Assembly: GCA_964035545.1 (NCBI GenBank)
Contig: OZ037771.1
Location: 5,241,190 to 5,305,189, forward strand
Source: Bugula neritina
Lineage: Eukaryota > Animalia > Bryozoa
Reading direction: 5' to 3'
DNA: 64,000 nt
Shown here: positions 22 through 59,500 of the stretch, one piece after another
How positions within the stretch are numbered: position 1 is the first letter of the stretch
Layout of the letters: each line of letters opens with the position of its first letter
Notes under the pieces: model-generated
What the model saw: the letters and a program-made list of their open reading frames with translations, nothing else
What the model was told of the DNA's origin: nothing
The model's database searches: none
Translations under genes and position numbers: made by a program

Positions 22-10521
<10,500 letters not shown>

Positions 10522-12495: not shown

Positions 12496-14177
12496 CATGT
12501 ATACATCATAAACACAAAAATTATGAAAAGCTTTAAACTCCAGATTTTTACCCGAAATTTTTTTTCATGTGCTGGAGTTACTCTACCCTGCTATGTGGTG
12601 TCAACATTGAAACCCTATTATTAGAGGTAAAGTTTGAATCACATTTGACCTACATTACAATCATACCAATTGTGTAGAAACTGAATAAAACATTAAATTC
12701 AAGTCTTCAAAACACACCAAATCTGTTAACAGCAAATACAGACAATGTACATCTGAAAATGAGTGTTAACGTTTACGTACTTCTTCAATGCAAATTATTT
12801 ATTTGTGATAATTTTTAACTATCTTTTATTGTTATACAATATACAACACTCCATTATCAGCAACGTTTTCAAGTCTTATCTGAATTTTAAACTTACCTTT
12901 TTTTGTCAAAAATCTCAGTTTCCTATTGCTTGATAAGTATAGGATATCAGTGCAACTATTTCAATGTTCTTGAAAGGTTGCACAAGATTAAATTATGGTA
13001 GTCTTAAATCTGCAGCATGCAACTGTCTATACTGTATTCTCTACCTGCGCAGCTGGTGGAGCTTACAGAGATAGACTACCTGTACCCAAACTGCAGTCTA
13101 GGTGATGTTGAAGAGAAGCAGTACAATATAACTGAACTAGAAGTTACAGTCTATGTCTTACCTGCACCTATCATACACATTTATGCTGGCTGTATATTAT
13201 TCATCCCTGTGTGTGATAAGAATTGGTTATAAATCTTGATTGTTATTCCGATTGTATGCACCCATTAGTTACCTTATGGTGGTGCTACTTTAATATCATG
13301 TACACAGCTATCATTCATACACAGAATTGTTGTTACAAAAAACAAAAAATTGTCACATAAAAGAAACTATTTCTCACATAAATATAGAATAAACCAAACA
13401 GTGGCTTTCCATAGCACATTCTACACAAATTATAACTTCTACTGGTGAAAAGAAGATTGCAATTTTACTGAAAAAATTCAGACAATATTTCTATGAAATT
13501 ATTTCTAGTAGTGTTTTGCTGTAAAGATACCTTATAATTTGTTATATTGTAAAATGTTTTCTGAATAAGAAGTTACCATGTGCAGCAAAATATACCAAAT
13601 GTATATTGCATACATTGTATGTTATATGTGAAAAGTATAAAGCCCGATACTGCACAGCACCTGCTGTATAGTTTGTTTCATCATAGTTTATAATATATAT
13701 ACATATATTAAATTACAGCATGCTTACTATAGAAAATTAAAAATTGTTATGATAAGTTTATATGCCCAAAATGCAGGCCTTACACACCCCATTACACAAT
13801 TATCTACCATCAGTGCTCAACAATTACACCTCCAACTGCAAATTAAAGTTATAGATGTCAAATGTATTACTTATAAATAATTTAATTAGTATAAGTATAT
13901 AAATTGTCCTTGATCATTGAGTTCAATTGGGCCCTAAATTATAAACTCTAGTTAGAATGTTGATGAATATTATCGTTAGCAAAATAAAAACTAACAAACT
14001 ATGATATAATAAATCATGATTTTGGTTCATGTCCTATTATTATGAGACTCCATTTTACATTTTACATTCATGAGCAATAGTTGTGCAGTTCTATTGAATG
14101 CAAAAATATTGACATTTATTTATTAACAATTATAAACATAATCAATAGGACAACATAAATAATATAAGCAACTATAC

Positions 14178-15400: not shown

Positions 15401-17262
15401 GCAGTTTGGCTTAAAAATGCACAAGCAGAATTCTTTTTAAAATTTTTATAAAGTAATGCAAAACTTTGGATTTTTTTATTTTAGCTGTTCAAATAGTCAA
15501 CATTGTTTACAAAACCCAGTTGCTATTACCATGAATATTGATCATATTGGTAAAAAAAATAAAATAGAAATAAACTATAAAACAGGGCTTTGTTTGAAAA
15601 TGCTATTCATTGTGAATTTGCCCATTGCATAGCATAATTAGTCAAGTACTTATGTTTTAAAAATGTTTTACAAATCAAATACGTAGAAGTACGATAATTA
15701 CGTAGTAAAAATGAGCTAAAGAAAGTTATTCAACAATGCTGAATTAAATAAACAAACTTGAGAACTAAATATTAAGATGATCTGCTAACTTTTGTTTCGA
15801 ATTGTAACATTCTAAAGTGAAGTATTCATGAATAGAAGTAAACTACATTACAAGTATTGAAGTGAGAACAACTCCCCAATTCTAACAAAAATTCCACATA
15901 ATTTATAACAAAGGCAATGCATTCTCCATATTCAATTTGCATAATGTATGACATAATTTTTAAAAAATAACAGCATAGTTTTTGGCAACATAAATTTTGC
16001 ACACTGCAGTTTTATATGAAGTTTCACTTGGAGGAAAGTTTTATCCTTTTATGTTGGTGAAATGATTGTTTTGAAATAGAAGTCTGGATAAAGTGTCCGG
16101 TAATTCAATGAACACCAAACTCATTCTGTTTAAAATGTTTTATCACTTTTAAAATATATTGTGAAATTTATTACAGAGTGCACACAAAAAATTCCAACAC
16201 ATTTTCACTAAAATTTTGGCTCAAAAAATGCTGAAAAGGATGGTGTAGCATTGGATTGCCATATCTAATTTGCATTTATCTTGCACTAACGAAAAAATTC
16301 AACAGTCCAAATTTTTGTACGTTTGAAGCACTGATTGAAATTTTTATGAAAATGTGACTAATTTGCTATGTTTCTCATTTAAAACACATGATTTTCTCAA
16401 TTTATCCATTACTGAACCAAACCTGTTTATAATTTATGATATAGCAGTTCAAGCGTTATATTTATTGGCTTACAAACTGCTGAATAAACATTCAACTGTT
16501 TTACATAATTTAAGAAACAACATTTGATAAGTATTAATGGGATCACACAAGAGCTTCTTGTGAAAACTGAAGTTTGAATTTCCAAGCAAAAATTTAGCAG
16601 CGCAACGCGTACACTATTGAAAGGCACTTGCAACTTGAACATTTTATGTATTGCATACTGTTATATCTTACTTGAATAATGATAGTTATATTATCATTGT
16701 ATGAAAAGAAAACGTCAGTCTAATTTTTAGCTTTTAATATTTTGCTGTTAACTTTAGACATTCGAGCTGTGATGTTTGAAACTTTATAAAGAAAACAGAA
16801 ATTATGAGATAAAACTTGAAAGACGTACTTACCTAATTATACATATGAAAGGCGTTCATTTTGTCAAGCACATCGGTAGACCATCAACTGAACTGCTAAC
16901 TGATTACTTCTAACAGCTCCACTGCTTATAGAGCTGACCCTCCGAGGAATAAAGAAAACTGAATGACTGGCCAGAACCATTAATGCCATTATCTGCAACC
17001 ACTATACCTACCAGAACTGATATCTGCAACCACCACCTACCAGAACTGATAGAGAGTTCTCGTAGATTAGATGAGTTTATAATTACTAAACAACTTGTTT
17101 CTCTCACTGCACGTTATGTAAGCGTTTGACTCAATCAATTTGGATTTAGACTGTAGCTTGTGCATAAGTTTTTGTTGCAATTGAAAAAAAACATTTTTAG
17201 CTACCATTCTGTATGATGACTTTATTCCCTTAAACATATTATTAGGTACAAATATTCTGAGA

Positions 17263-17570
<308 letters not shown>

Positions 17571-18224
17571 ATATATTAACATACTATTGATAGCAGTGAA
17601 TAATACTTGTTTACAATTTCAAATAAAAATAAACAACTTATCATTGTGCCACACAAGCAAACAAACCAGTGTTATGTAAGACATTTAATTGATGAACTAT
17701 AGAATAATGTTTTGCTAGACATTACAGTGATAATGATTTGGTTATGAAGAGTACATTCAGTTTATAGCTGGCCTGGCTCATCTCAGAAACCAAAAGAGAT
17801 TTTCTGGCCTATCTAATTGCAGCAAGTATACTTGACATTGAGGCTAAGATTCTGGCAGTAGCCTGTAATTTCCTCTACGATGACATACAGAGCAAGCTGA
17901 CTCTCTTTTCATCAACTATCAAAGAAAAATAACATATTTTAAACATACTAGTCCATAGTTACTAGGAAAAAACAAGTGCATGAAAAGTGTGTGAGTGTAT
18001 ATAAAGAAGATTCAAGAATAAAAGTCTTTGTTTAAAATTAGTATTAGCAATAGTAAAGTTGTTCTTTTTCTAATTCTTAATTAGTAAAGTTCAATGTCCA
18101 CATCTTGATTTTATCATACTCATTATTTACTTTTAAAATTGAGTTTAAAAAATAGAGAAAACAAGTGGTGAATAGTGATACACATGTAGAGGGAGCAGAA
18201 GAGTTTTATAAAGTACTGAGTGGG

Positions 18225-20312: not shown

Positions 20313-21415
20313 ATGGAATGTTGCGTCTGCCATGCCACCCCTCCACAAATTAAGCGCTGTTCTGGGTGCCACATTTCATTGTATTGGTGTGTACAGTTTA
20401 AACAATTTGTTGACAGCCATCCAACTAATTTGGCATTAAGTTTGGTGTAAACTTTCATTTTTATAGCATTAGTATATTTTCTGTGCGACTAGTTTTCACC
20501 TGTAAATTAAGACAGTTGTACCAAACTACAAAATAAAGTTCCAAGCTAAAGTAAAATTTGCAGCTCAGCACGTGGAAGAAATAGGGCTAGATTGTCCAGA
20601 ACGAGAAAATTTACAAGTGTTTTTAATGAAAATTACAATAGCTAATACTAGAACTAGATAGTGAGAGTATATAAAATAGTTATAAATTGAACAATAAAAA
20701 AATTGAACCAAGTATTCCTATATTAAAAGCTTAAGTTAATAATTAACATGATTATTAGTCCGGTTGGTCTGTAGCTTTCTAAACTAATATATTCAGATAA
20801 AATTGCAAGAGAATTCACTTTTTTGCATAGTTGGGTTGATGCTTACTCTATTAGAGAGAATTTTAATGGAAGCTATCGTTGTGTGTTTGCAGTTCTACAT
20901 TATGTCAAAGAAGAGATTGGGCAACACATAGACACTCATGCATTGATGCGATATCAAATACCACAGACATTAGCAAGCTAACTTCCAAACATAAGATCAA
21001 ATATTATGACCAGGACGGAACAGTGAGGGAAGAGCCTTCAGATACAAACATTGAGGACGGAGATACAAACGTCAATCTCAGTTACAGAGGCAAACGAGCT
21101 GTTATGAAGATCAGCAAAAAGTGGGAGGGCCAAGTGATAATGAAAGTCATCTCCTGGAATGCTAAAGTGGCCATAACTGATATGAAAGTTATTATAAAAG
21201 GGAAAGTAATGACTGCAGACACCATTGCTGGTTATATATATCCAAAGACTGTCATAATGGTAATTGGAGAGGAAGCATTATTTTCTGAAGGGATAGAGGA
21301 GAGAGATATTGTTTGCTTGATGAATCAAATGGACATTAGTCGTAGGCAAGCTATACAGAGTTTGAAAAACTCAACATCTTTAATTGACACAATACTAGAA
21401 ATTGGAAACAGCTGA
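20313..21415 (+). CDS. MYND zinc finger + ubiquitin-like + C-terminal UBA-like protein, two coding exons (20313-20386, 20893-21415), ~198 aa
   Basis: Splicing gt 20387..ag 20892 (phase 2) restores MECCVCHATPPQIKRCSGCHISLYC|STLCQRRDWATHRHSC, a complete MYND pattern. Then VNLSYRGKR...MKVIIKGKVM (UBL-like) and IEERDIVCLMNQMDISRRQAIQSLK...LIDTILE (NAC-alpha/HYPK-type UBA-like). The frame is open back to an acceptor at 20239, so the true start could be upstream. Confidence 0.8.
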
Positions 21416-36546: not shown

Positions 36547-37102
36547 TGTAGTAGTTTTGTGGGTTATAGAATGAAATCAGGCAGAGAACATAACTCCTTG
36601 TTATAGAAGAGACAAGCGAGAGAGGTTGCCGTGTGCTTGCAGTACTTTATTGTAGTAGAGAGAAGTGTCCAGTGTGAGCTCCAGTCCGCAAGTGACTGAA
36701 GCTCTAAAATGTGTGTCCTTTTATACCAGTGGAACAAAGGACCTCTAGAACCTTCTACCGACAGTGGGCCGATGTTCGGCAGAGGATACCGACATTCGTC
36801 ATGTCGGTAACCGACACTGGAAATATCGGCAACCGACATTCGGTCTGCCTGCATCCACCTGCCGAAATCGGTCCAACTGTCGGTTTACATGAATCAGCAA
36901 AAATGAACGCAACCAAGTGTATGCGTATTGTAACTTATAATTGGGGAAGGGGGATTAAATGTTTACTATGCCAAAGGCTTAATAATAGCCATAGTATTTA
37001 AGGTATTAGAAAGTTACGCCATAGACTTAGCTGTAACTACAGTATTTAGAAAAATAGCCATAAGTAATGTGTCAAGGGGGATAATTCCTAATATTTACCA
37101 CA
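36547..37102 (-). mobile_element. solo LTR (family S), 556 bp
   Basis: TG...CA termini, 4-bp TSD ATAG at 36543-36546 and 37103-37106, minus-strand TATAAAA at 36725-36719 and AATAAA at 36651-36646; homologous to 11942-12495. Confidence 0.9.
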
Positions 37103-37654
37103 ATAGTCAGTATAATAGTCATAGAAATAGTGAGTCAAATACACCTGGTGACTTACAGTTACTCTTAATGACTCACAGTTACAGTCAGTCACTCCGTCTC
37201 TATCAGTAAAACTAAATCACAGTCACAATGATACTCATAATCACTAATCAGTGTAAGTATCAGTGTCACAAATAATAATTTCAAGCATATTGATATTCAT
37301 ATTGTTTTTAATGCCTGTGTATTAAGTTCAATACTTAATAATTATTATGAATAAATGATAATATACATATTAAATATAATTCATTAAATTTAATTGAGTT
37401 ATAGCTTTACTAATAGTAATACTAATAGCATTAGTAATACCTATTCTGTTAGTGTAAGGGTTATACTATAGTAATAGTTAATTAGTTTTTATATTGACAA
37501 TTACAATCAGAATGAACATGTGTAAGAGTTAGACTTAGACTGAGACTTGAAGTATCAGTATTATTTTGGCTGTGTTAGTATTACTATGAGTATGGGTATG
37601 AGCATCAGTCTGAATATAACTCTATGTTTGATTAGATTACCAATAGGCAGTATC

Positions 37655-38090
37655 AGTGAAAGTAAGCTACTGGCTTACACTAGTTTGTGCCATCCCATTG
37701 CCGAGTATGTAGATACTGTGTGGGATCCAACCTTAGCATTGAGTCATCTTGAAATGCTACAGCACAGGGTGGTTAGGTTTATTGCTGGATTGAAGAGACG
37801 AGAAAGTGTCACCAAGGCATGCTTTCAGCTTGACCTTCAGCCTCTCAAACAGAGACGCAGGACTCACCGACTCAATCTTCTCATGAAAATTTTGCAGGAA
37901 GAAGAACAACACTCAAGATTGGCAATAGCTGCAATGAAGTCATACGAAAACGCTAGAGTATAGCAATAACAACTAAGTCTGCTGCACGCAGTGAACTAAC
38001 ATCTAGATATTCAAACTCACAAGTATACCATGGTAGTTTTTTACCAAAAACCATTAGAGACAGCAGAAGGTCCACATAAAAAAAATCAAA
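37655..38090 (+). mobile_element. 5'-truncated, frameshifted LINE (CR1/L2-like) 3' fragment
   Basis: KLLAYTSLCHPIAEYVDTVWDP...LEMLQHRVVRFI...; SFLPKTIRD in a shifted frame; A-rich end. Confidence 0.78.
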
Positions 38091-38438
38091 AATAATTGTC
38101 ACAATTACCACCTAACCACTAATCCACACTGTAAAACAAATGAGGCACTTCTATAACCCTCAGTGTTTCCAAGTGTCCTACGAGTATGAGTATCAGTATG
38201 GGACTGAGTATCACAACCACAATAAATAAATATAATGAACTTCAACATGAAAGTAATGAACATACTCATTACTAATAGAATTAGATTTATAGTAGTGTAA
38301 ATAATGTATTTTACTATTAGTATTATTAATTCACTAATAAATATAATTTCTATTGTAGTAATTAAATTAAATAATAATATATTTTATTGACTTTGAATTA
38401 CAGATCAATCATATTCCTATTGATAGTGATAGTAATAC

Positions 38439-38742
38439 TGTGGTGGCTCGTGGAGCTACCAGCAACACAATACGCAAGGTTGCGTATTGACCCGGAACAA
38501 TGTATTAGCCAATTAACTAAGCTGTTTGATAAGTAATAGTAGCCGCTTCGCGCTACTAGCTCAGTGGAGGATAGTGCTGTAAATTAAGTAGACGTGCGTA
38601 TCATTACTGTTGTGCATTGGATTTTATTATGTATTCTTGTATTAAATATAACAATATCTACTCGACTTAACTGGTGAAGTTTCTCTAGTGTTAAATAGAC
38701 TCTCTTGGTGGCACATCAACCCTAAATCTGAAAATTATAACA
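38439..38742 (+). repeat. 5' LTR
   Basis: tgtggtggctcg...aattataaca; identical by eye to 45579-45882. Confidence 0.97.
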
Positions 38743-38743
38743 G

Positions 38744-38761
38744 TGGTGGCAGCAGTGGGAT
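38744..38761 (+). promoter_or_regulatory. primer binding site, tRNA-Leu type
   Basis: TGGTGGCAGCAGTGGGAT one base after the LTR; complementary, with about one difference, to the 3' end ATCCCACCGCTGCCA-CCA of eukaryotic tRNA-Leu. Confidence 0.85.
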
Positions 38762-38775
38762 AGTGTATATCAAAG

Positions 38776-39642
38776 ATGGAGACTGAAAACGCTGGAATGC
38801 AACCACCCCCAGTAGAAGGTGAGCGTAGAAATGCTGTTAACCCTGTAAACTATGAAGGAGAAGAAGCTTATAGACATTACTTGAAAGCTCCCACCTTTAC
38901 TGGGTCGGAAGATGTCGAACAATTCATACAAGAATTTAGAGAAGTAATGGAAGTTGCTCAATGGCCGCATAGAGTGGCCCTCATTCAGTTGCGGAGAGCA
39001 GTGACGGAGCAAGCCAAGCCGTACGGAGTGGGAACGGACGTAAACGGCATACTGGCTGCGCTGCGGGCCCGTTTTGGCACCTCCGTCATAGACGCTAGGA
39101 CCAAGCTGGAGAGATTGTGCCGCACCCCGCGGACCTCGCTGCAAGAACATGCCGCGACGGTGAAGAAGCTGGCGCAGATTGCATATAGCGACCTACCAGC
39201 ACAACACCAAGAGCGTTACACCTATGACGCCTTTGTCCAGTCCCTAAACGACCTGGGCCTAGACCATCACCTACGAGCTAAAGGGATAACCAGAATGGAG
39301 GATGCCCTGAAGGCTGGAGAAGCTTACCTGTTGGCTACCCAAATGCATCGAGCACAGCGGAACCCACCAGTAGTTGGAGTCAGCGCTGCTCGGGCTACGA
39401 CAGGCTCCGAAGCCCTCCCGCTGGAAGCCGAAGTGGACCGTATGGTAGAGATGCTGGGACAATTGGTAACCATTCTGGCTGGTGCTGGCCCCGGTCAGGC
39501 CTTGCGGATGCCCCCAACACCTGTGGGGCAAGGCTGGAGTAGCGCTGATCAGGACCAGAGACAGGAAGGACGACCCCAATACCAGGGGGCGTTAAACTGT
39601 CACGGCCCGCGGACATTCTCCCTCCCCGCGGGCCGCAACTAA
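38776..39642 (+). CDS. gag: Gag (capsid-like, 288 aa; no CCHC knuckle visible)
   Basis: First ORF after the PBS; APTFTGSEDVEQFIQEF...AALRARFG...TSLQEHA..VKKLAQIAY..FVQSL. Confidence 0.9.
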   Translation: METENAGMQPPPVEGERRNAVNPVNYEGEEAYRHYLKAPTFTGSEDVEQFIQEFREVMEVAQWPHRVALIQLRRAVTEQAKPYGVGTDVNGILAALRARFGTSVIDARTKLERLCRTPRTSLQEHAATVKKLAQIAYSDLPAQHQERYTYDAFVQSLNDLGLDHHLRAKGITRMEDALKAGEAYLLATQMHRAQRNPPVVGVSAARATTGSEALPLEAEVDRMVEMLGQLVTILAGAGPGQALRMPPTPVGQGWSSADQDQRQEGRPQYQGALNCHGPRTFSLPAGRN

Positions 39643-39651
39643 AGGAGTATG
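39591..39651 (+). promoter_or_regulatory. candidate -1 ribosomal frameshift signal (G TTA AAC, 10-bp stem, possible pseudoknot)
   Basis: Heptamer 39591-39597 in gag phase; stem 39603-39612 / 39626-39635; the -1 frame has no stop from 39549 into pol. Confidence 0.8.
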
Positions 39652-39815
39652 GTGGAACACGCCGTCGGCTGTCCGTACGGACGCGGCGGAACATTCTACC
39701 CGAGTGGCAGGTACCACGCAGGACTAGTAGGCCCGCACAACGGCCCAGTACCTTTTCCCTGCCACTCGCTAACCGGTTTCACCGGTTACCTCGGGAGGAG
39801 GAGCCCGCCACTGAA

Positions 39816-42800
39816 ATGAAGCCAGAAGGCCCAGTGGAGAGGCCCAAACCCCGCCGGCACCAACCTCGCCGCCGGAAGCCCCGTAAACCACGGGTGAAAC
39901 CCCCGCCGTCCTGTCAAACCAAGACAGCACATGCGGGGGGGGTGAAAGTACAACCACATGGAGAGAGCTATTTCCTACCCGGAAAGGTGGCCGGCAACGC
40001 CGTCACTTTCCTGCTCGACTCCGGTTGTACTACCAACCTTCTCAGCCGTAGAGTCTTTGAGGCACTGCCCCGCCGGGACAGGGATAGAGTACGACCGTAT
40101 ACTGGAGAACATGGCACCCTGGCAGACGGGTCATGTATCCCCTTTTATGGTATTATCGAGCTCCCTGGGCGTGTCCGAGATCAGGCTGTACAGGAGACCT
40201 TTATCATAGGTCAACTGGAAGAAGATGCTATCCTCGGAATGCCCTTCTTGAAGCAGCACCAGTGCCGAATAGATTTCAGTAGGTCGGTGGTGCTGATGGG
40301 CGGGCGAGAACTCGCCTGTGTGGATAAGTTTGGGCGTCCCCTGGTGGGCGGTGTTCAGGTAGTTCGAAACTGCACCGTACCCGGACGCTCCAGAGCTACT
40401 ATCCACTGCCGAGTGAACAGCAACCGGATAGCCAGGCTCGGGGTCGTTGAAAGCGCGCACGAAAAGATCCAACTCGCCAGTAGTTTAAACCGACTAACTG
40501 AGCGAGGGGAGGTCTTAGTGCAGTGCGTCAACCCCTTTACCGAGCCCATTGAGCTCCCAGCTGGGTCAATGCTGGGCCGGTTCCATTCCGTCCAGGAAGA
40601 GGACGTGGGCCCGTCGCTGGGTGACGCGACGGAGGCACCCCCTCGACACCCTATTCAGGGGCGAGGGGCAGTCCCGACACATCTCCGGGAGTTATACGAA
40701 ACAGCCAGTGGCGGCTGCGCGAGTAACAGAGAACGCCAAGCTATGGCCAAGTTACTACGCGACTACGGTGATGTGTTCAGCAGCGGGGAGAATGACGTGG
40801 GACTGACTGGAATTGTCAGACACGAAATACCGCTGACTGCAGGGACAGTCCCTGTCCGGCAGCCCACGCGCAGGCTGGGGCCGGAGAAAGAGAAGGAGGT
40901 TAGCCGACAAGTACGGGATCTTCTGGACCGGGGACTGATAGAGCCCGCCCATAGTGCGTGGAGCTCGCCAGTCGTACTGGTCCGGAAGAAAGACGGCAGT
41001 TGGCGGTTCTGTGTGGACTACCGCAAACTCAATAGCGTAACCATACAGGACGCCTACCCTCTACCTCGTATTGACGAGTCATTGGACGCCCTAGCCGGCA
41101 GCAAGTACTTCAGTACGTTAGACTTGCTAAGCGGCTATTGGCAGGTTCCTCTGAGTCCCGACGCCCAAGAGAAAGCGGCGTTTATCACACGGGACGGTTT
41201 GTGGAAGTGGAAGGTGCTGCCCTTCGGGTTAACCTCCGCCCCAGCCACCTTCCAGAGGCTGATGGAACAAGTCCTTAGCGGACTCCATTGGAAGACACTG
41301 CTGGTCTACCTCGATGATGTCATCGTAATCTCTCCAGACTTCGAGACACATGTCAGTCGTCTGCAGGAGGTTTTCGAGAGACTCCGAGGTGCCGGTCTTA
41401 AGCTCAAACCTTCCAAGTGCGCTCTGTTGCAGCCGGAGGTCAAGTACCTGGGGCACGTTGTCGGTCGAAACGGCGTGGCAACGGATCCCGAAAAGGTACG
41501 GGCAGTAGAAGACTGGGTCACCCCCCAAGACTTGACCGGACTCCGGGCTTTCTTGGGGCTGGTAGGGTATTACAGGCAATACATACCAGACTTTGCGGGC
41601 ATAGCCCAGCCGTTAAACCGGCTTACCGCAAAGGGAGTGACGTGGCAGTGGACTCCAGTCGAACAAGAAGCGTTCGACCGCCTCAAGGGCTGCCTCCTAA
41701 CGGCGCCCATCTTGGCCTACCCAGACCCCACTCTGGAGTACATCCTAGACACGGACGCCAGTGACCAGAATGTTGGCGCTGTGCTGTCACAAGTGCAGGA
41801 AGGCCGAGAAGTAGTAGTAGCCTACTACAGCAAATCTCTCTCTCCCGCTGAACGAAATTACTGCACTACCCGCAAGGAGCTGCTGGCAGTAATCAAGTCA
41901 GTGAAGCACTTCAGACCATACCTATATGGCAGGAAGTTCCGGCTGCGTACGGATCATGCCTCGCTGATCTGGTTGTGCAGGAGAGCAGAGCCTTCCAGTC
42001 AGGTCGCCCGGTGGCTCGAAATCCTAGCTGAATTCTCGTACCGGATCGAACACCGACCGGGCAAGAGACACAGCAATGCGGATGGGTTGAGTCGCCGACC
42101 TGACGGAGGTTGCAAACAGTGTCTCAACATCGAGAGGAGGGATGGAGGTCCCCCACGATGCGAGTTGGAGACGCTGGCTCATCACGGAGCACCGTTTGAC
42201 TGGGATCAAGGTCAACTCAGGCAAAGAGTTGATGAGTCCCCGGAGGATGTACAAAACCTCCGCGCCAACCCTGTACTGGCCGGTAATGTTCGAGAGCTGA
42301 AGAAGCTCCAAGAGGAGCTGCCTGGAGTCGTGGCAGACATCTACCGGGCCAAAAAGGAAGGGCGACGACCCAGCGAGGAACGCATACGACAGGGATGCGC
42401 CGAGTTCCGGCTATACTGTCAGCGTTGGGACTCGCTGCGGATCGGGCAGGATGGGTTGCTAACCATCTCTCTAGCTGCCAGCGGCAGACACCCGGAAAGG
42501 AAGAGGGTAGTCTGCCCCACAGCCATCCGCCGTGAGTTGATTTGGGATACCCACAAGCAGGCCCACGCAGGGGTCAAGCGAGTGATATCCAAATTACGAC
42601 TCCGGTGGTATTGGCCGCAGATGGAGCGTGACGTCCGGCTCAGAGTCAAACAGTGTGAGATCTGCCAGGCCAGTAAGCATAGCCGCCCCCCTGGTGAAGC
42701 AGGACGGAGGAGGCTATATGCTGGTAGGCCCTGGCAAGTAGTCGCTGTAGACCTGGTCGGACCCATGCCCCTGACCCCCAGAGGCAATAATTGGATCCTA

Positions 42801-44216
42801 GTACTAACCGACCACTTTACTAGGTGGGCGGATGCTCTGGCTATCCCAGATGCGTCAGCCCCAACAGTGGCCAGGGCACTAGACCAACATGTATTCTGTT
42901 ATTTTGGGCTTCCCGAACAGATACACTCTGATCAAGGCGCTCAATTCCAGTCTCAACTGATGAGCGACCTTTGCCACCTCTGGGGAGTAAATCAGAGCAG
43001 GACCACCCCCTACCACCCTCAAGGTAACGGGGTGGTGGAGCGCAACAACCGGATGCTAGGTGATGCGCTCCGGAGTCTCCTCCTTGGACGAGGTCAAGAG
43101 GAATGGGATACGGTGTTGCCGCAAGTCATGCGTGCATACCGTAGCACCCCACACACCAGTACTGGTGAGACCCCAAACCTCTTGATGCTCGGGAGAGAGA
43201 CTCGTGTCCCTGACCATCTCACCTATCACGTTCCAGAGCAGGATAACTCAGTCCACGAGTATGCCAGTGAACTAGTGGAACGGATGAAGGCCGCACACGA
43301 GATACTGCGTCAACAGCAGTGGAAGGTGCGGCACGAAGATTCCGATGAACCACCCCTCTATCAGAGAGGAGATAAGGTGTGGATGGTCAATTACCGTAGG
43401 CGCCGCGGACAGGCTGATAAGCTGAAGCCTAAGTTCGTAGGCCCCTACGTGGTCGTCGAGGCTATGCCCAATCATACGTACAAGATTGAGCGCTCAGGAC
43501 AGGTGTCTATCCAGAATGAGTCTCGCTTGAAACCGTATTGGGCTAGCCCTGACGGCGTGGGAGAAGCCCCCCCGTTGTTAGAGCCCAGGAGGCAGACAAC
43601 GACGCGCGGGCGACGGCGGCATGGACCTGAATACGAAGTGGTCATACCGCGGGAGGAAAACTTGGTGAGAGAGGAGCGGCAGCTTTTGTCAACAGAAGCG
43701 TGCCCGCCACCGCCAAGTCTAATTCCATCACTTCCAGAAACCGAGCCGGTTCCGGAAGTGCAAACCCCCACGGAGGGAGGGGCTCCATCCGGAGAACAAG
43801 AAGAGGTGACTACTAACGGTGAAGTAGAGACGCCATTTGAGGCCCCTACTAACGAACCGGCAAGCGTGTCACCCCCCCTAGAAAGGGGACAGCGTACGAG
43901 GAAACCCCCACCGTATTTGAAAGACTTCATATGTGACTGCATCAGAAGCGGCGCATATGAAAGTCTAGGGGAAAACCGTACGATAAAATGTTGGAGTTGT
44001 GAACCCCACGCAAATATCAACTTTTGCGAGGGCGGAATAGTGGGAGGAATTAATGCGCGTAAAGCAAATAGTTCCGACCTCGTGCCTCAGAAACGATGCT
44101 CAGCCTTTTCTTATGCTGACATCGCCAAAGGCAGACGTATCCCACAACCAGCTCCAACCTTACCAAGAACGTTGAGTATGGACATTAATACCGAGTTCCC
44201 AGGTAAGCCAGTATAA
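39816..44216 (+). CDS. pol: Pol polyprotein (aspartic protease, RT, RNase H, integrase); frame open from 39549, probably expressed as Gag-Pol
   Basis: LLDSGC; WRFCVDYRKLN, LPFGL, YLDD; DTDAS, TDHASL; H-x3-H...CEIC, DLVGP / SDQG / VERNN; GPY motif; RTRKPPPYLKDF. Confidence 0.97.
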   Translation: MKPEGPVERPKPRRHQPRRRKPRKPRVKPPPSCQTKTAHAGGVKVQPHGESYFLPGKVAGNAVTFLLDSGCTTNLLSRRVFEALPRRDRDRVRPYTGEHGTLADGSCIPFYGIIELPGRVRDQAVQETFIIGQLEEDAILGMPFLKQHQCRIDFSRSVVLMGGRELACVDKFGRPLVGGVQVVRNCTVPGRSRATIHCRVNSNRIARLGVVESAHEKIQLASSLNRLTERGEVLVQCVNPFTEPIELPAGSMLGRFHSVQEEDVGPSLGDATEAPPRHPIQGRGAVPTHLRELYETASGGCASNRERQAMAKLLRDYGDVFSSGENDVGLTGIVRHEIPLTAGTVPVRQPTRRLGPEKEKEVSRQVRDLLDRGLIEPAHSAWSSPVVLVRKKDGSWRFCVDYRKLNSVTIQDAYPLPRIDESLDALAGSKYFSTLDLLSGYWQVPLSPDAQEKAAFITRDGLWKWKVLPFGLTSAPATFQRLMEQVLSGLHWKTLLVYLDDVIVISPDFETHVSRLQEVFERLRGAGLKLKPSKCALLQPEVKYLGHVVGRNGVATDPEKVRAVEDWVTPQDLTGLRAFLGLVGYYRQYIPDFAGIAQPLNRLTAKGVTWQWTPVEQEAFDRLKGCLLTAPILAYPDPTLEYILDTDASDQNVGAVLSQVQEGREVVVAYYSKSLSPAERNYCTTRKELLAVIKSVKHFRPYLYGRKFRLRTDHASLIWLCRRAEPSSQVARWLEILAEFSYRIEHRPGKRHSNADGLSRRPDGGCKQCLNIERRDGGPPRCELETLAHHGAPFDWDQGQLRQRVDESPEDVQNLRANPVLAGNVRELKKLQEELPGVVADIYRAKKEGRRPSEERIRQGCAEFRLYCQRWDSLRIGQDGLLTISLAASGRHPERKRVVCPTAIRRELIWDTHKQAHAGVKRVISKLRLRWYWPQMERDVRLRVKQCEICQASKHSRPPGEAGRRRLYAGRPWQVVAVDLVGPMPLTPRGNNWILVLTDHFTRWADALAIPDASAPTVARALDQHVFCYFGLPEQIHSDQGAQFQSQLMSDLCHLWGVNQSRTTPYHPQGNGVVERNNRMLGDALRSLLLGRGQEEWDTVLPQVMRAYRSTPHTSTGETPNLLMLGRETRVPDHLTYHVPEQDNSVHEYASELVERMKAAHEILRQQQWKVRHEDSDEPPLYQRGDKVWMVNYRRRRGQADKLKPKFVGPYVVVEAMPNHTYKIERSGQVSIQNESRLKPYWASPDGVGEAPPLLEPRRQTTTRGRRRHGPEYEVVIPREENLVREERQLLSTEACPPPPSLIPSLPETEPVPEVQTPTEGGAPSGEQEEVTTNGEVETPFEAPTNEPASVSPPLERGQRTRKPPPYLKDFICDCIRSGAYESLGENRTIKCWSCEPHANINFCEGGIVGGINARKANSSDLVPQKRCSAFSYADIAKGRRIPQPAPTLPRTLSMDINTEFPGKPV

Positions 44217-44233
44217 GTCTTGTATTCCTATTC

Positions 44234-45307
44234 ATGGAAACGGGCTCGATGCCAGTAAATTCTGAACTAATTCAGCAGATTGAATCAGAATTACTGGGAA
44301 CCACGTTTCATGTGAATGACGATGAAGACACTGTAATGGCCGACGGTCTGTTAGACCTGGAGCTAGACACTGTTCTTGGTCAGTCCACACATGATTCATC
44401 AGTTCCTCGAGTGCATTCCAAAAGCTGTGACTCTCAGGCTAGCAACGGTCGACAGTCACTAGAATTATGTTGTAAAGATCCACCGCGATCTAACAATAAT
44501 TCTACTCTTGTAGACACACTCGCACCCGTCTCTACGGACATGCCTTCTCTAGAGATGGCATGGGACCCGGAGCCGGCCCCAACAACTCCTACCACCAGGC
44601 AACTACCACCCCAGTTGGAAGCAACCTCCAACTGGATTACCCCTGCCACAGAGAGGGAAATCAGGACCCATCAAGGAGGTGAAAGTAATCGTGAATGCAA
44701 CCTCTGCCAGCAGCGATTCACAACCCACCGCAGACTAAAGGTGCACTTGCCGCAGCACTACATCACCACTTTCTGCCCTTGCGGAGAATATAGCTATAAC
44801 CGTGATTACCTGCTGCGGCACCAACGTACTATGCAGTGCTATCAAGGACATGTCTATGAAGTAGACGAATCATCATATCCTGCCTTTCTCAACGCCATTA
44901 AACCACTCATCACTGACTCAGCTCGGCTATCTCGCCTGGAGCAAGGCTTCCCTTCCCCGCGACCTATCATCTCTGGAGCCACAGATAAACCTACACAGTC
45001 TGCTAACTCTCCACCTCACAGTCCTGTACGCATGCCGCATACCTTTCCTCGTGTCGTACTACAGAGAGTAGACACAAATGCATATACACTCCCTCCTCCT
45101 CTTCCATCCTCAGAGCGGAAACGACACAGGCAACCAACTTCCTCTCGCTCGTCCCCCTGGGCCCGTAACCTACGTGAGGTAGAAGCTAGGGCGCATGACT
45201 TGGAGCAAGAAGTCTACAGGCTGGCCCCACGAATACAAGCAGCCTCCAGTGAACTCAAATACTTACAGGAGTCGATTAAACGCATGAAGCGTGCGGCCCG
45301 CAATTAA
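44234..45307 (+). CDS. retrotransposon accessory ORF3: acidic N-terminus, C2H2 + C2HC-like zinc fingers, basic patch, C-terminal coiled coil (357 aa)
   Basis: CNLC-x12-HLPQH followed by CPC-x12-H-x5-C; ERKRHR; LREVEARAHDLEQEVYRL...LKYLQESIKRMKR; lies inside the LTRs; no signal peptide or TM segment. Confidence 0.85.
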   Translation: METGSMPVNSELIQQIESELLGTTFHVNDDEDTVMADGLLDLELDTVLGQSTHDSSVPRVHSKSCDSQASNGRQSLELCCKDPPRSNNNSTLVDTLAPVSTDMPSLEMAWDPEPAPTTPTTRQLPPQLEATSNWITPATEREIRTHQGGESNRECNLCQQRFTTHRRLKVHLPQHYITTFCPCGEYSYNRDYLLRHQRTMQCYQGHVYEVDESSYPAFLNAIKPLITDSARLSRLEQGFPSPRPIISGATDKPTQSANSPPHSPVRMPHTFPRVVLQRVDTNAYTLPPPLPSSERKRHRQPTSSRSSPWARNLREVEARAHDLEQEVYRLAPRIQAASSELKYLQESIKRMKRAARN

Positions 45308-45567
45308 CTCGAGTCTACCTACCACTCCCTACCACTCATTCCCCTACCTCTCTGTGGCATTCCCTACCGTAATGGTGGCACGTACTCTATATGTAGATAG
45401 GACCTTCTCTTGCTTATTACTTAGTGCACGATATATATACCTGTATATTTTTTACCAGTTGTTGTTTTTTTTTATATATTATATACTTTTATGTTGTTCT
45501 CTTACCCCCCAACGAAGTATACGTTTTTTTTGTGAATCTTATTTTATCAGAAAGTGGGCTTTCTGCT

Positions 45568-45578
45568 GGAGGGGGCAG
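45568..45578 (+). promoter_or_regulatory. polypurine tract
   Basis: ggagggggcag immediately before the 3' LTR. Confidence 0.8.
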
Positions 45579-45882
45579 TGTGGTGGCTCGTGGAGCTACC
45601 AGCAACACAATACGCAAGGTTGCGTATTGACCCGGAACAATGTATTAGCCAATTAACTAAGCTGTTTGATAAGTAATAGTAGCCGCTTCGCGCTACTAGC
45701 TCAGTGGAGGATAGTGCTGTAAATTAAGTAGACGTGCGTATCATTACTGTTGTGCATTGGATTTTATTATGTATTCTTGTATTAAATATAACAATATCTA
45801 CTCGACTTAACTGGTGAAGTTTCTCTAGTGTTAAATAGACTCTCTTGGTGGCACATCAACCCTAAATCTGAAAATTATAACA
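45579..45882 (+). repeat. 3' LTR
   Basis: Identical to the 5' LTR; followed by TSD ATAC. Confidence 0.97.
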
Positions 45883-46818
45883 ATACCCATAATGATAGTA
45901 ATGTTCATACTGATAGTGTCAGTGCTAGTGCTACTCATACTCATATTGATGGGGTATGGGTATTAGTATAATATTGATGGTGAAACACAAACTGAATGTG
46001 GGACAACTACAATGTGAGTGTATCATTGTCGAATGTGATTGTCAATGTAAGAATAATTGTTTACTTGTAGTTCACAGTTGTGGCTGCAATATAAACATAA
46101 TAATTTAATGTCATTTTTATTATTATAGGTATTATATTATTACTGATAAATAAAAATAAATTAAATATAAATAAATAATAAGTACATATAATAATAATAT
46201 GAATCTGAATGTAATTGTTATTGTATGAGTGTGAGACTCAGGCTGCATCAGTCTCACTCGTACTGATAGTCATAGTGATAGTGATACTCGCAGTGACCAG
46301 TGGTGATTACAATTTAATTTACTGGTAATCATGATACTGATAGTCATACTTATACTGATACTGACTGGTGATTTTAAAAGTTATAGTGATACTAATACTA
46401 ATATTTAGCACCAACAGTTAATAATAAAGGCAGTATTAATATTAGTAATGACAGTAGATGATGCATAATGTTATGCTTATTACCATATACTTATAATTAA
46501 TAATATTATTATTACTGTCATAACTATGGTTATAAGACTGTTTTATAGTCATGGTTAGAAAAGTAAAAATATTTTCCAAAGTATATATAATATATAGAAC
46601 ATTTATATATATATGAGTAAAGTATATTAACAGTTATAGTAATTCTAAATGCTTTGTAAGTGCTTCATACTCACTCTTAGACATATAACAATAGTAATAT
46701 TTAAAACTATTTTCGTGAAGTTATATAGTGTGAGTGTAACTTTTTGTAGTGGTATAAAATTTCAGTCTGAGTCAATTTATGCTTTTCATTCTTTAGACTG
46801 ATAAATGTTTAATTCTTT

Positions 46819-49800: not shown

Positions 49801-52695
49801 ACTAAGTCATTATAAATGTTGAGGTTTAATTGAAATTAGCGAAATTTAGACAAATCAAACTATTTTATACAAGTTTGCTGGTTCTAATTTTTTCAGCCAA
49901 AAGTAAAAGAAGTAACTATTAAATATCGATATTAGATATGGTCGAATAACGTTGTTAAATATTATATCACATCACTACTAAACACTGTATCATATCACTA
50001 CTAAATATTATATTATAAATATTGATCTCTCTGCAGCCTGAACCAGATGAATCTATGAATCATACACCCCTTGAAGTGGATGCCGAGACGACACTGGAGT
50101 CCCCCTCCAAGACCTTGCAGGAGTATTCTGCGGAACTGGACGTGTCGCACTCCATGTCTTCTCTCTTCCCTCCTTCCTCCAATGCCTCTAACGATAACGA
50201 ACTGCAGATCAGGTATCCACTCCCAGTCATGATAGTCTCTGGAATAGTCGAGGCTGTATTCTACCAGCCTTATTTTCTTCACTACTGGTATTGTGATTGC
50301 CTTCAACAATTGCACTTACATTGCTCTTTTTTTAAACACCCAAATATATACTCTTTAGTATGTAAAACTCCGAAGGAATTTGCTATACCCTGCATTTCCT
50401 CATGGTGAAAGATTACAAACTTGAAAGCTGAGTGTGCTGTAGAAATGGTTTGCTGTGATAGGTTCTCTGTTCTAATCTTTCAAGTGATCAAATAGCCGAA
50501 GCATAGTGGTGGACAGTACACTCTCAACTTCATCATCTAATTGACATGCTACATTGACTGCACTTATTTACTTTTATGTTCAAAATTATTTTATTTTTAA
50601 TTTTATTATTCAACACTAATACAGTTTAGGACCTTCCATTAGTGCAGATAGCTATTACTCTTCGAGTTTTGCTGCCAAGTTACTATTGCTGCACAGATAA
50701 TGCCCAGGCTTACATTTTATAGGATTTCTTTACAATTTTCACAAGAGACACCCGTAACTTATGTACAAACCTGTGCCATAAAGTATATAAGAGAAAGTAC
50801 AAAGTGTGTCTATATAAACTAGTTAGGTTATTGTACATTATCCACCTATGTGACATTCACATTGTGTTGGTCTGAACTTACAGGGCATCTGTAGACGCTC
50901 AGCTGATGGAAATACCTGCAGACGGGATGTATCAGTGTTCAGACTGTCTATGGCGCTCTAAAAGTGCTGATACCATGAGGTAGAGTATCAGCATAATATG
51001 TGTCAGTGCGTTGTAATATGTGTCAGTGTTTTGTAACATGTGTCAGTGACTTGTAATATGTGTCAGTGACTTGTAATATGTGTCAGTGTCTTGTAATATA
51101 TGTCAGTGTCCTGTAAACATTTGAATTGGCCGTCAAGATCATGTCAGTCTTGGCAAATATGCATGATTTGCGTGTGTCAGTTTGCTTGTAGATAACTGGT
51201 CAGTTGTGAATATGAGTCATCACTGGGGCAGTCAGTTTTTTAATATTGTTTTATATGTAATATAAACGCTGATTTGATATATACTAAAGAGTGCTTTAAA
51301 TTTTAAGCTGTTTCATATTTGTTCAAAGTTTCTATACAATGTATATGTGTTGATAGATTTTATTGCTCTATGTTTGACATTGCCAGGGCACACATGTTAA
51401 GTCACAAAGGCATTCTGCCGTTCTCGTGCACCATCTGCAACTATAAGACCAACAAGAAACACGTTCTCACACGTCACTACACTGTGCACACTGGAGAGAA
51501 GCCACATAAATGTCCTATATGTTCATTTGGTTCCCTCGACCACGTGGAGCTGCTCAAACATATGACAGTAAGCACTTCTAATATAGTGTAGTACTAGTAG
51601 TAGTAGTAGTAGTAGCAGTAGTAGTAGTGGTAGCAGCAGTAGTACTAGTCGTAGTGGTGGCAGTGGTAGTAGTGCTAGTAGTAAGGGTGGTAGCAGTAAT
51701 AGTAGTATCAGTAGTAGTAGTAGCAGTAGTAGTAGTAGTAATAGTAGTAAGATTAGTGGTAGTAGGAGTAGTGGTAGTAGTAGTAGCAGCAGTAGTAGTA
51801 CTAGTACTAGTAGCAGTAGTAGTAGTAGCAGTAGTAGTAGTGGTGGTAGTAGTAGTAGTAGTAGTAGCAGTAGCAGTAGTTTGTACTGTAGGTTTTTTTG
51901 TATACAAAGCTGCAGGAGATGGTGAGTGAAAAAACTGCTATCTAAAGAATTAACTCTTTTTAGTCTCTTTCGGGTTGTGCTTCTGGTGGTTTACTATACA
52001 GTTGAATTATTGGCTGTATCAACCAAGTGTTGTGGTGACTGTTAGTGACACTACTGGGCTTCATCTTGCTTGATGTGCAACTTTTGCCCTTCGATAATGG
52101 TATCATTATTGGTTTATTCATGTCTTGAATTGTTAAGACCATCTAAGAGTTGTTCTGTGTGTATCAGGTGAACAACTACATATGCAATCACACATGGGTT
52201 GCAGATTTCCAAGCGTAACTTCTTATACTGACTCAATAATGTGACATTTAATACAAATTTGCAGTCTACATCCACTGAAACCACTACTTTGATTTGGAGT
52301 TGCCTCATCTTTATAGACTTTATACAAGTTGTTAATTACAGCTGTATTATATATAAGTATTGTCTACTCTGTAGTTTACACTCATTGTTATTGGACGTGT
52401 GCTATGTTTGTAGCTTATTCATCCATCATTTCTATTTCAGAAAACCCACCCTGGTGTCCACCCATTCACCTGCACTATTTGTGGGCATCACGCCACGACC
52501 AACACTCTACTGAAGAAACACATGAAACTCATGCATAGCATGTCCATTCGCAAGCAGCAGTCCCCCAGCTCTGAAGCGCACAATCTTAGCTCAGGTTCAA
52601 ACAAGTTCAAAGCAGTCAGGAATGTAGTGAACTCAGCCTCAGAGACTATTTACTCTAGTGACTCTAATCTAATGAGTCAACCTATTTTTCCTTGA
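46819..52695 (+). CDS. C2H2 zinc finger protein (5 fingers), 9 coding exons
   Basis: Phase-consistent GT-AG chain: 46819-46983, 47941-48097, 48495-48608 (CHHCPRTF..WRHIRSHH), 49016-49138, 49361-49557, 50037-50212, 50884-50979 (YQCSDC), 51387-51567 (CTIC..HYTVHTGEKPHKCPIC), 52441-52695 (CTIC..HMKLMH, TGA). Confidence 0.88.
50994..51115. repeat. 20-bp minisatellite, about 6 units
   Basis: tgtgtcagtgacttgtaata units. Confidence 0.9.
51584..51880. repeat. degenerate (GTA)n microsatellite, intronic
   Basis: gta/gca/gtg triplets. Confidence 0.95.
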
Positions 52696-56500: not shown

Positions 56501-59500
56501 TTTAACATAACATAACATAACTTCTTTTGCTACATTTCTAATCTAGAACACAGGCTTTTCTCAATTTCTCCAGTACTGCACATACCTCATAAAGAATTTA
56601 TGGCTATAAAAGAATGATGACACTCAATGCATGATTCGCTTGAAAACAAGTGTATTGTGTGAATTAGCTATGACTTGTTTAGTTTTTTTTCTAAAAAGTA
56701 TTATTTTTAACCTGGAGAAGTTAGGTAATCCTCTCTCTACATGGAGGTGACAAGACATGCAAATTTTAACGTAGAAGTTATCTACTCTTGACATAGAAAT
56801 ACTTTTTTCTGATGTTTCTAATAGCAGTCAGTTATCATACCTTCATCTTTTTTAATCTCTGCACCAGACTACGAGCTGCTAACAGTATGGATATAAATGA
56901 TACTCCAATCACTAAGACATCGAAAATAGTTAGACCAACTTCTGCAGCCAAATTACCTACAAAATTAATCGGCATTCTATTACCAGATACTAAGCACTGG
57001 ATACTAGGTACTAGCCAGTAGTCACTAGCTATTAATGACTATACCTACTAGTTACTCGATACTAGGTACTAGCTACTAGTTACTAGCTACTAGCTACTAG
57101 ATACTAGGTACTAGCTACTAGTTACTAGCTACTAGTTACTAGATACTAGGTACTAGCTACTAGTTACTAGCTACTAGTTACTAGATACTAGCTACTAGTT
57201 ACTAGGTACTAGCTACTAGTTACTAGGTACTAGCTACTAGTTACTAGGTACTAGTTACTAGCTACTAGGTACTAGCTACTAGCTACTAGCTACTAGTTAC
57301 TAGGTACTAGTTACTAGATACTAGCTACTAGTTACTAGCTACTAGTCTAAACTACAACAGCATATAACTTGTGTCACCACAAAAATACATAAAGAGCAAA
57401 TCAAACTTTGAGAAGGCTTAAAAATGAGTTTTCCAAGGCGGCTAATTATGACAATAAATGAGAGAAACAGATATGCTTTCATTGGAAGAGTGCCAATGGT
57501 TTTTCTACGTATTATTGTATTGAAACACTAGTGTAAGCTATCCACCAGTTTTATTACAGTATAATAACAGATTTTAATAAAGTGGAACTCCCAATTGATA
57601 TAGTCTCCAAAAACACTCCTACAAAATAGCAGAACTATAAATTATCTTACGGTTTTCTATGCTTTGTTTTTGTTGGCTTTTCTTTTTTAATTCACATACT
57701 TTCATGTCTAGTTTAGTTTTGAGCTTAACAATGAATCTTCCACCATGTTTTGAGTTATCATACGTTATCTACAAACATGGAAAAAAATTATACTATACAA
57801 CTATTATTGGCTTACTTCCCAAAAACAGAAAATATATGATATCTATCCCTCGTACTCGCAGTTTTTTCTCCTCACAAGCCTTGGCCATTAATATTAACAT
57901 GCAAGCATTAAAGCCATTAATTTGGACCTCATGAGGTCTAAACCAATCACACATAGAATTTTTCATTGCCAGACAGAGTGATAAGCTTAGCAGTCATGGC
58001 TTTGCAAAGGCCTTGATGCATGGGTATACATAGCCTATGTTAACATAATTATCTTGTCTCCATTATTTACTAACTATGACCAAGATTCTGCCATGCTTGT
58101 TGTAGGCTTCCCTCTCTGAAATACCCACAAGCAATGGTCTCTGCTGCACAAGCTACAAACCATTTGACTGGAAATTATGTTAACCATAAAAAGTTGAAAA
58201 CTTATAACCAAAAGATGTAAAAAAAATAATGCTGCTGCTCACTAGAAACTTTAGGAGATGCTGTCATATCAAATTGTCATCTGGCTGTGGTCTCAAGCTT
58301 AAACTAAGTTGCTTAAAATATGTAGTGCTGAGTTTATCCAGTAGTCCTGTGGTGTAATGTGGTGTAATTTAATTAGCTGCTTGCAAGCCAGATGGCCTCG
58401 GGTTCAAATCCCAGTAGAGGCAAAATTATTTTATAGATTTATGTTGAAAAACTAGCAACAAGACATAACAACATAAAAACTCATTATCATAGAATTCCTG
58501 CTTGCTTGAACCAATGTTTCTAAAATTATATTATGATTTTAATTCTACATGCAGAAACCAAATTGGCTTATTTAGTACATACAGCATGTGACTTACAATA
58601 ACATTGAAGATGACACATTCAACATCTGCCAAGGGCTCAGCTGGTGTGTATTTTGGTATTTTCACATCTATTCCATACAGCTTCAGAGTTAAAGACATAT
58701 TAATTATTCTAAAATGAAAATGCAATATTTTTATTGATAAGCCAAACAAGAAACACAACATTATTAACATGCAACACTGAAACTAATTTTTCCATTATTT
58801 TTAGAGGCATATTAAGTTGTGATGAGTATTGGGGCTTGCATACTCACAGTACCATATGTTTGAGAAGTAGGAAGGGCTGTTTACATCATACAACCAGTCA
58901 ACTATAAATTAAGAAGGCTGGATAGTGAATTTGCTATAAGAGCTTCCTTTATAATGTAAAAGGTACCCATGTTGCAAATTACATAACTCATTCTATATTT
59001 TGGTTAATTAGTGTGTGCAATAACTGTTCATGTATTTTTTTTTTATTTTATCAGTTTTTGAGTTTATTGAAAAACATTAAATTTAGCACCACAAAACATG
59101 GATAGAATGCATGTATGTATAAGCCCTTTAAAAAGTTAGACTTTATAACAATAACAATAATTAATATTTACTTTTTTATGGTAAAAATAAATTTATTAAA
59201 TTGTCTTTTTCTTATCCAGCTTGATACTTTATTAAGCAGCTGCACTAGCATCTGCAATCTACTCACTCTCCAAAGCAAAAGCACAAAAAGTGAACAGGAA
59301 GTAAAAAATATTAACATGCCTTTGAGGTTCAATTGTCATGTTGTCAATGTTGAGGTGGTCCATGATTTCATAGCATAATTCTTCATTTGAACTCTCATTG
59401 CACCCTCCTTTCTTCACAATATCTTGAGGTAGCTCTTTTATAAACCCTTTGAAAAGTATGCAGCAAGGTGATGCAGTGATGTTAATATAATATATAGTGA

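Follow-up and report, generated by a model that had tools for sequence, protein, structure and literature searches.

A double zinc-finger module, free or fused to Pol, in a gypsy retrotransposon of the bryozoan Bugula neritina

What does the third open reading frame of a gypsy retrotransposon encode when it does not look like an envelope gene? In errantivirus-type gypsy elements, the third ORF is Env, which has a signal peptide and a transmembrane anchor; for the locus examined here, that comparison is a mere contrast. We analyzed a 64,000-nucleotide stretch of Bugula neritina DNA (contig OZ037771.1), hereafter the window, in which a sequence-only reading had proposed that the ORF downstream of pol encodes a nuclear regulator with zinc fingers and a coiled coil. 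We asked whether this ORF is a genuine part of its element, what it encodes, and what it may do.

The ORF (ORF3) is harbored by a complete Ty3/gypsy retrotransposon spanning 38439-45882, in which the direct LTRs, target-site duplication, primer site, polypurine tract, and order of the pol domains are all as expected of that group. The 304-bp LTRs (5′ LTR, 38439-38742; 3′ LTR, 45579-45882; both plus strand) run from TG to CA, are the same at 304 of 304 nucleotides, and are bordered by the 4-bp duplication ATAC (38435-38438 and 45883-45886). A primer-binding site (38744-38761, plus strand), presumably of the tRNA-Leu type, follows the 5′ LTR and has a near-identical counterpart after the LTR of a distant homologous locus, L074. 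The polypurine tract occupies 45568-45578 (plus strand). gag (38776-39642, plus strand; 288 amino acids) is without a Pfam match, and an ORF and Pfam scan found no intact CCHC knuckle in it. The open frame of pol (39549-44216, plus strand; first ATG at 39816) overlaps gag in the -1 frame and, by Pfam, encodes protease, reverse transcriptase (RT), RNase H, integrase, an SH3/GPY-F region, and a tail, with no chromodomain among its matches at E ≤ 1. The gag-pol overlap contains a likely -1 frameshift signal at 39591-39635 (plus strand), predicted from a heptamer in the X_XXY_YYZ phase and a following 10-bp GC-rich stem, the fold z score of which (-1.39) is alone not significant.

The insertion site (38138-38438 and 45883-46182) is a degenerate simple repeat of period 3/6, and the right flank ranks within the highest 3% of flanking 300-base segments for lag-6 identity at this single insertion. 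One contig of sequencing run X1 leaves out approximately the entire element, which hints weakly at an allele without the insertion, and near-identical pieces of the element region are present in a seawater sequencing run. Elsewhere, the window holds a pair of dispersed repeats (11950-12526 and 36556-37133; 73-97% alike and 24.6 kb apart) and tandem arrays at 17192-17641, 51564-51938, and 57000-57405. It also contains what we take to be fragments that resemble exons of an ABC transporter and include a Walker A motif (3287-4755, minus strand), a short UBA-like piece (21104-21415), and, immediately upstream of the retrotransposon, what is probably left of a LINE (37586-37963).

ORF3 (44234-45307, plus strand) starts 17 nucleotides past the pol TAA (44214-44216). 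It is indeed intact at 357 amino acids and lies between identical LTRs, and 357 open codons would arise by chance, at the local composition, at a rate of 3e-7 per start. The predicted protein consists of an acidic disordered N terminus, a two-finger domain, a Pro/Ser linker with a basic patch, and a C-terminal coil. Several features proposed at first reading were recovered as described. Residues 1 to 50 include 12 D/E and zero K/R; the basic patch RKRHR lies at residues 295-299 (45116-45130, plus strand), with K296 invariant across 16 aligned homologues, and is a candidate nuclear localization signal; and the heptad-patterned tail is a long helix at residues 308-356 (45155-45301, plus strand), a candidate coiled coil. 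A homodimer prediction for residues 303-357, run without an alignment and weighed neither way, scored 0.05. The claim that the product is not Env also stands. Neither a membrane segment nor anything like a signal peptide is present in ORF3, where hydropathy over 19 residues peaks at 0.56; just 3 of the 179 ORF3 homologues of at least 150 amino acids reach a hydropathy of 1.6; and order in the model is confined to the finger domain of 123 residues plus a single helix, which is not the fold of an Env or fusogen.

The two proposed fingers held up in part. Finger 1, starting at 44696, has the ligands C155-x2-C158-x12-H171-x3-H175 along with F162 and L168 and fits the classical C-x2-C-x3-F-x5-L-x2-H-x3-H pattern, but it scored 15.6 and 19.3 bits against PF00096 in two scans, below the cut-off of 25.2. 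Finger 2, which runs to 44839, has the reported C181-x-C183-x12-H196-x5-C202 arrangement, but its last ligand is variable: C202 is present in 79% of 133 domains, and the column is unconserved in 24 Pol-fused domains. The AlphaFold2 model of full-length ORF3 is ordered only at residues ∼124-246 and 308-356, with a pLDDT under 50 for 163 of the 357 residues. Folded alone with a 25-sequence alignment, residues ∼124-246 gave a confident, compact domain of 123 residues (44603-44971, plus strand; pLDDT 91.1, pTM 0.82). In this model, the fingers share one folded domain and are not beads on a string; the C2H2 finger is joined by a 5-residue linker, itself forming a strand, to the C-x-C...H finger with its variable fourth ligand, and a strand and a helix frame each side. 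The TGEKP-type linker array of classical C2H2 factors was not found, and no Pfam family reached its cut-off for the finger domain of the window.

Structural comparisons returned DNA-bound tandem C2H2 pairs as the top matches, at Z scores of 3.8 or less and with about half of the domain aligned. These were Kaiso (58 residues at an rmsd of 3.0; Z 3.8), SALL4 ZFC4, and ZBTB20 (both Z 3.5). Both fingers of these pairs superimpose on the model (rmsd 2.4-3.0 over 50-58 residues at Z 3.5-3.8), but just half of the ORF3 domain takes part in the alignment, and it departs from the pairs in its short linker, its atypical finger 2, and the additional strands and helices packed against the fingers. There was no structural match with a Z score of 5 or more. 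Foldseek searches of the PDB and viral libraries gave nothing at E ≤ 0.001, a full-length ORF3 structure search against VIA gave generic coils only, and the ESM Atlas gave unnamed or generic C2H2 clusters. The lack of a strong match does not imply a new fold. Across the 133 domains, the first recognition helix is basic, with R or K at position 166 in 87%, R at 167 in 80%, and R or K at 169 in 78%.

A word-based search identified 59 ORF3 homologues of 196-625 amino acids, and an exhaustive profile search found 317 representative proteins at 50% clustering, 128 of them at E ≤ 1e-10, with 150 of the 317 matches listed. In 133 aligned domains, C155, C158, H171, H175, C181, and C183 are conserved at 96-100% and H196 at 93%; besides the ligands, W134, T139, V210, and D211 are conserved. 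Among 15 close homologues, identity is highest in the fingers (0.80), compared to 0.41-0.52 just upstream. An alignment-based search for longer ORF3 forms gave P0077 alone and is insensitive, longer homologues being already known. Pattern searches confirmed as ORF3 loci 0 of 238 matches in metagenome contigs and 0 of 131 matches in viral contigs. P0204 and P0214 have a gypsy protease fused in frame to the finger module but neither RT nor integrase, which probably reflects an internally deleted nonautonomous element that retained the module.

Sister copies of ORF3 are neither absent nor broken, as X1 contigs cover 30 of 30 bins and no indel is as frequent as 10%. Neutral evolution is likewise not what we found. 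In codons 94-357, 8 of the 12 best-supported X1 differences listed are silent (29% expected; P = 0.008). In codons 1-93, 9 of the 23 best-supported differences listed are silent (P = 0.22), and these come mostly from the more diverged X5/X6 contigs. Both counts refer to the best-supported rows listed, beside 11 further rows, and derive from different sequencing runs; runs X5 and X6 share few words with the element and were used as aligned pieces. One N-terminal difference classed as a stop is probably half of a double change in one codon. The position after pol and ahead of the 3′ LTR recurs, since diverged contigs, of 85-90% likeness, span the junction from the pol stop to the start of ORF3, and L074 agrees at the 3′ side. 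With 317 representatives carrying the module, the sequences argue against a passive one-off capture from a host and for a lineage-wide module. We are all but certain that ORF3 genuinely belongs to the element and is under selection there.

L074 was the one true homologue (E 3e-27) among 108 loci from a degenerate-motif scan. The homologous frame, 726 codons long or longer, stops immediately ahead of a polypurine tract, which is followed by a 719-bp LTR, a primer site, and the start of gag-pol. On the minus strand, L074 1-4530 carries the ORF3 homologue, LTR, primer site, gag, and pol head to tail, and this arrangement reflects either tandem elements with a common LTR or a collapsed assembly. 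The L074 gag does have a CCHC knuckle. Since L074 thus has both a knuckle and the finger module, the module is not a simple knuckle substitute.

Free forms predominate among the homologues closest to the window: of 51 that reach the N terminus, 47 start at the same Met with no extension, and three of the remaining four have a pol-tail-like peptide in frame before the ORF3 Met. P0191 showed no significant likeness to the pol tail. In a domain-profile scan of the 120 best Pol relatives, 28 carried the finger domain, every time behind integrase. These in-frame fusions indicate that the module alternates between a tail on Pol and an ORF of its own. The short motif that terminates 28 of 92 unfused Pols is still present in 24 of the 28 fused ones, with the fingers lying 57-602 residues farther on. 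Trp is absent from 11 of 24 fused linkers, so the fusion is not a TGA read through by the gene caller. An acidic stretch (net charge of -8 or lower per 40 residues) precedes the fingers in 23 of 28 fused Pols and a basic patch follows them in 24 of 28, both tallied without control stretches. By a crude test, a heptad window lies behind the fingers in 22 of 28 fused Pols versus 12 of 28 control stretches; the same test was positive in 30 of 30 hand-picked ORF3 homologues. P0226 and P0253 are Pols that end in the coil of fused sister elements with the fingers missing, and the related Pol P0327 carries a dUTPase and, in its tail, another kind of Cys/His finger-like pair, which the domain profile does not match.

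In a FastTree phylogeny of RT-RNase H with 118 rows, all 27 fused rows fell into one group of 82 rows that includes the window, where they are intermixed with unfused ones; zero fused rows were found among the 25 more basal and 11 distant rows. Unfused rows count a separate ORF3, loss, and truncation alike, and the count of 19 changes takes in truncated gene calls and overstates fission. As far as an unrooted tree built by a fast method can suggest, the module looks to have entered this subclade a single time and to have undergone fusion, splitting, or loss thereafter. Thus, the earlier view of ORF3 as an accessory protein was right in that the ORF belongs to the element, is conserved, and is under purifying selection, but its picture of a stand-alone third gene was incomplete, as the module also exists in a Pol-fused form.

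How the free protein would be made can be predicted in part. Conservation of the Met and in-frame indels in codons 1-93 support translation from ORF3's own Met. We rejected a ribosomal frameshift from pol into ORF3, as the 10-nucleotide overlap is without a slippery run. Splicing of ORF3, predicted from candidate sites scored with home-made matrices, has about even odds. A stretch at 44440-44515 (plus strand), conserved as DNA between diverged families, ends at a candidate acceptor, with a branch point at 44490-44494, a pyrimidine tract, and AG at 44512-44513. The acceptor falls in phase 1 in codon 94 and ranks eighth of 568 AG sites and second among those bearing a branch point; other acceptors outscore it. 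The best of 420 GT sites is a candidate donor at the pol end (44200-44208, plus strand; last exon base 44202, phase 1), 14 nucleotides ahead of the end of pol, and the second best lies in gag codon 15 (38816-38824, plus strand; last exon base 38818, phase 1). Both donors are in frame with the acceptor at 44513, and two donors of 10 bits or more occurred in 53 of 200 shuffles.

Among the X5/X6 pieces listed for 44440-44515, 10 of 11 cease matching at 44513-44515, and one X1 and one X5 contig cease matching at 44208, as would be expected if the signals were conserved as DNA. The predicted structure of 44440-44515 is not unusual (z score, -1.07). No joint from 38818 or 44202 to the acceptor was present in any of the sequencing-run contigs examined. 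Low-depth contigs inside ORF3, with no joints, came from the metatranscriptome run X2, in which contigs are not proof of transcription and the coverage gap at 44150-44538 carries no weight. The GT of the pol-end donor is seemingly missing in P0072 and P0125, as read from the protein. A splice-donor scan of L074 found no site above 7.4 bits, leaving the gag donor unsupported there.

The LTRs supply candidate targets. A perfect inverted repeat with 10-bp arms and a 2-bp spacer lies at 38468-38489, with a second copy at 45608-45629; a third copy of its 7-bp core lies at 38595-38601. An arm of 10 bp was reached in 2 of 1,000 dinucleotide shuffles of the window LTR and 3 of 1,000 for the L074 LTR, while the 3-fold motif of the window LTR by itself was not significant (39 of 500 shuffles). 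The L074 LTR has several inverted repeats on one CpG motif, and CpG-containing 6-mers recur in it up to 8 times (0 of 500 shuffles). The comparison involves two LTRs, and their repeats differ in sequence and spacing. A half-site common to both was a post hoc pick that was not significant (80 of 1,000 shuffles in the window) and was rejected. The inverted repeat in the LTR of the window is a putative target for a dimer.

Foamy-virus Tas/Bel1 and plant VANC are element-encoded nuclear proteins that bind short motifs of their own element and promote its expression. By analogy with these proteins, which come from other element classes, ORF3 may have a similar function. The likeness to DNA-bound finger pairs, the basic recognition helix, and the inverted repeats of the LTR together point to a dimeric activator or anti-silencing factor that binds its own LTR, a reading to which we give a little less than an even chance. 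The module, produced free from its own ATG or through a splice from the gag start onto the acceptor at 44513, would enter the nucleus, pair through its C-terminal coil, bind the inverted repeats of its own LTR, and activate the element or shield it against silencing. In fused elements, it would be freed by the protease or reached via splicing, as for the Cer1 protein CERV. The acidic-finger-basic-coil order is the same in fused and free forms, and the module sits past the natural integrase end, which favors a trans-acting factor. Against the LTR activator, C2H2 fingers bind RNA and protein too, the LTR repeats might instead form hairpins in the RNA or serve as sites for host factors, codons 1-93 are without clear selection (P = 0.22), and the Pol fusions in 28 of 120 relatives fit an integrase-linked job at least as simply.

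Such a job would be that of a targeting domain, a counterpart of the chromodomain that reads DNA or chromatin and steers insertion. Chromodomains are described at the integrase end of one Ty3/gypsy clade (PMC2774666), and the module resembles them as a possible DNA or chromatin reader at the C terminus of Pol in one clade. It differs from them in its fold, its long variable linker past the integrase end, its terminal coil, and its frequent occurrence as a separate ORF. Beside the fusions behind integrase, which are not a read-through artifact, and the placement of all 27 fused rows in the 82-row group of the window, a targeting role gains from the three homologues with an in-frame pol-tail-like peptide before the ORF3 Met, from the P0226 and P0253 Pols that retain the coil without fingers, and from an insertion, albeit a single one, into a simple-repeat tract of a kind seen in 3% of flanking segments. 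The best donor of the element, moreover, is at the pol end and in frame with 44513, so in the window the link could be made by the 44202-to-44513 splice, or else in trans through the coil. Yet 47 of 51 close homologues are free ORFs, the linkers of 57-602 residues extend past the natural integrase end, the acidic region and terminal coil are unlike a chromodomain, and the pol-end GT is seemingly missing in P0072 and P0125 at the protein level. In addition, the accessory ORF of Cer1 is in the polyprotein frame yet yields a separate spliced protein (PMC10309623). We consider the targeting role, and either form of the link here, unlikely while still a serious minority view.

Cer1 also suggests an RNA-based function. 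Its accessory protein CERV, from a Ty3/gypsy element of Caenorhabditis elegans, exports RNA; it has H, M (a C4-type loop), and G-like domains and is described from nematodes only (PMC10309623). By this account, a spliced gag-ORF3 mRNA would encode a CERV/Rev-like factor that, inside the nucleus, binds genomic RNA left unspliced and clears it for export. The strong phase-1 donor at gag codon 15 fits the acceptor, and the DNA-conserved 44440-44515 could be a response element. But ORF3 has a C2H2-type double finger and a C-terminal coil, with named carriers in bryozoans, which sets it apart from CERV as that protein is described; the H, M, and G-like domains were not found in it, its ligands being those of Cys/His fingers and its ordered parts leaving no space where a G-like domain could fit. 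DNA-bound fingers are the closest matches in fold, the response-element candidate is not unusually structured (z score, -1.07), and the gag donor is unsupported in L074. We regard RNA export as rather improbable. More improbable by far is that the module is a captured host zinc-finger gene of no benefit to the element. Host-annotated genes of Watersipora and Bugula do carry the domain, but it is kept across elements just 18-35% identical to the domain of the window, its ligands are invariant, silent differences are in excess, and the host-like genes fall at three places of a weakly resolved domain tree, which fits repeated domestication better than a single recent capture. An ancient host origin with a later function in the element is possible.

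Whether this class of ORF had been described was left open by the sequence-only reading, and the answer is divided. As a general class, non-env ORF3s in gypsy elements are known (PMC5408684 and PMC10309623). In bdelloid rotifer LTR elements, they encode a GDSL esterase, a DEDDy exonuclease, CC, or TM proteins and likewise show that the ORF behind pol can be something other than Env, but they are enzymes or membrane/coil proteins, and a look-up of “zinc” in the main text found nothing (PMC5408684). We found no zinc-finger ORF3 or Pol tail in gypsy elements in the literature, with Repbase, Dfam, GyDB, supplements, and subscription journals outside the search. The terms “zinc,” “ORF3,” and “additional ORF” have zero occurrences in the accessible text of PMC8556966 and PMC6238403, “zinc” is absent from that of PMC13524379, and both of the “zinc” passages in that of PMC12440569 concern the Gag knuckle. 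What appears to be new is an uncatalogued domain in a non-env accessory module of gypsy elements that occurs in fused and free forms.

Four of 30 ORF3-type clusters looked up have an organism name, all of them bryozoan (Watersipora subatra and Bugula neritina). These four are annotated as host proteins, two with the domain twice; the host-annotated carriers are Watersipora XP_067940963/4 and XP_067944745 and Bugula KAF6040922/3, some of them isoforms. Among our matches, P0164, P0209, P0210, and P0068/P0208 are bryozoan host-annotated proteins with one or two domain copies. Three host-annotated proteins from Watersipora and Bugula have a common N-terminal peptide not seen in the element forms, and the two Bugula genes have neighboring locus tags. 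On the poorly resolved domain tree, these genes are plausibly domesticated copies of the module, although the transfer may have run the other way. The fullest scenario, a large and hitherto undescribed gypsy clade of marine invertebrates with its own dimeric zinc-finger factor that arose as a Pol tail, serves as a particle-borne activator or protector of new insertions, split off repeatedly, has splice sites giving both forms, and was domesticated several times in bryozoans, strikes us as a long shot.

To our knowledge, animal LTR retrotransposons without an envelope are thought to be nearly wholly host dependent for transcription and targeting, CERV being among the very few tested exceptions. 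A domain of 123 residues that is predicted to fold well and candidate LTR sites make an activator, anti-silencer, or tether of the element's own directly testable. The host-annotated copies in bryozoans, in turn, mark a possible route from a transposon to a host zinc-finger gene.
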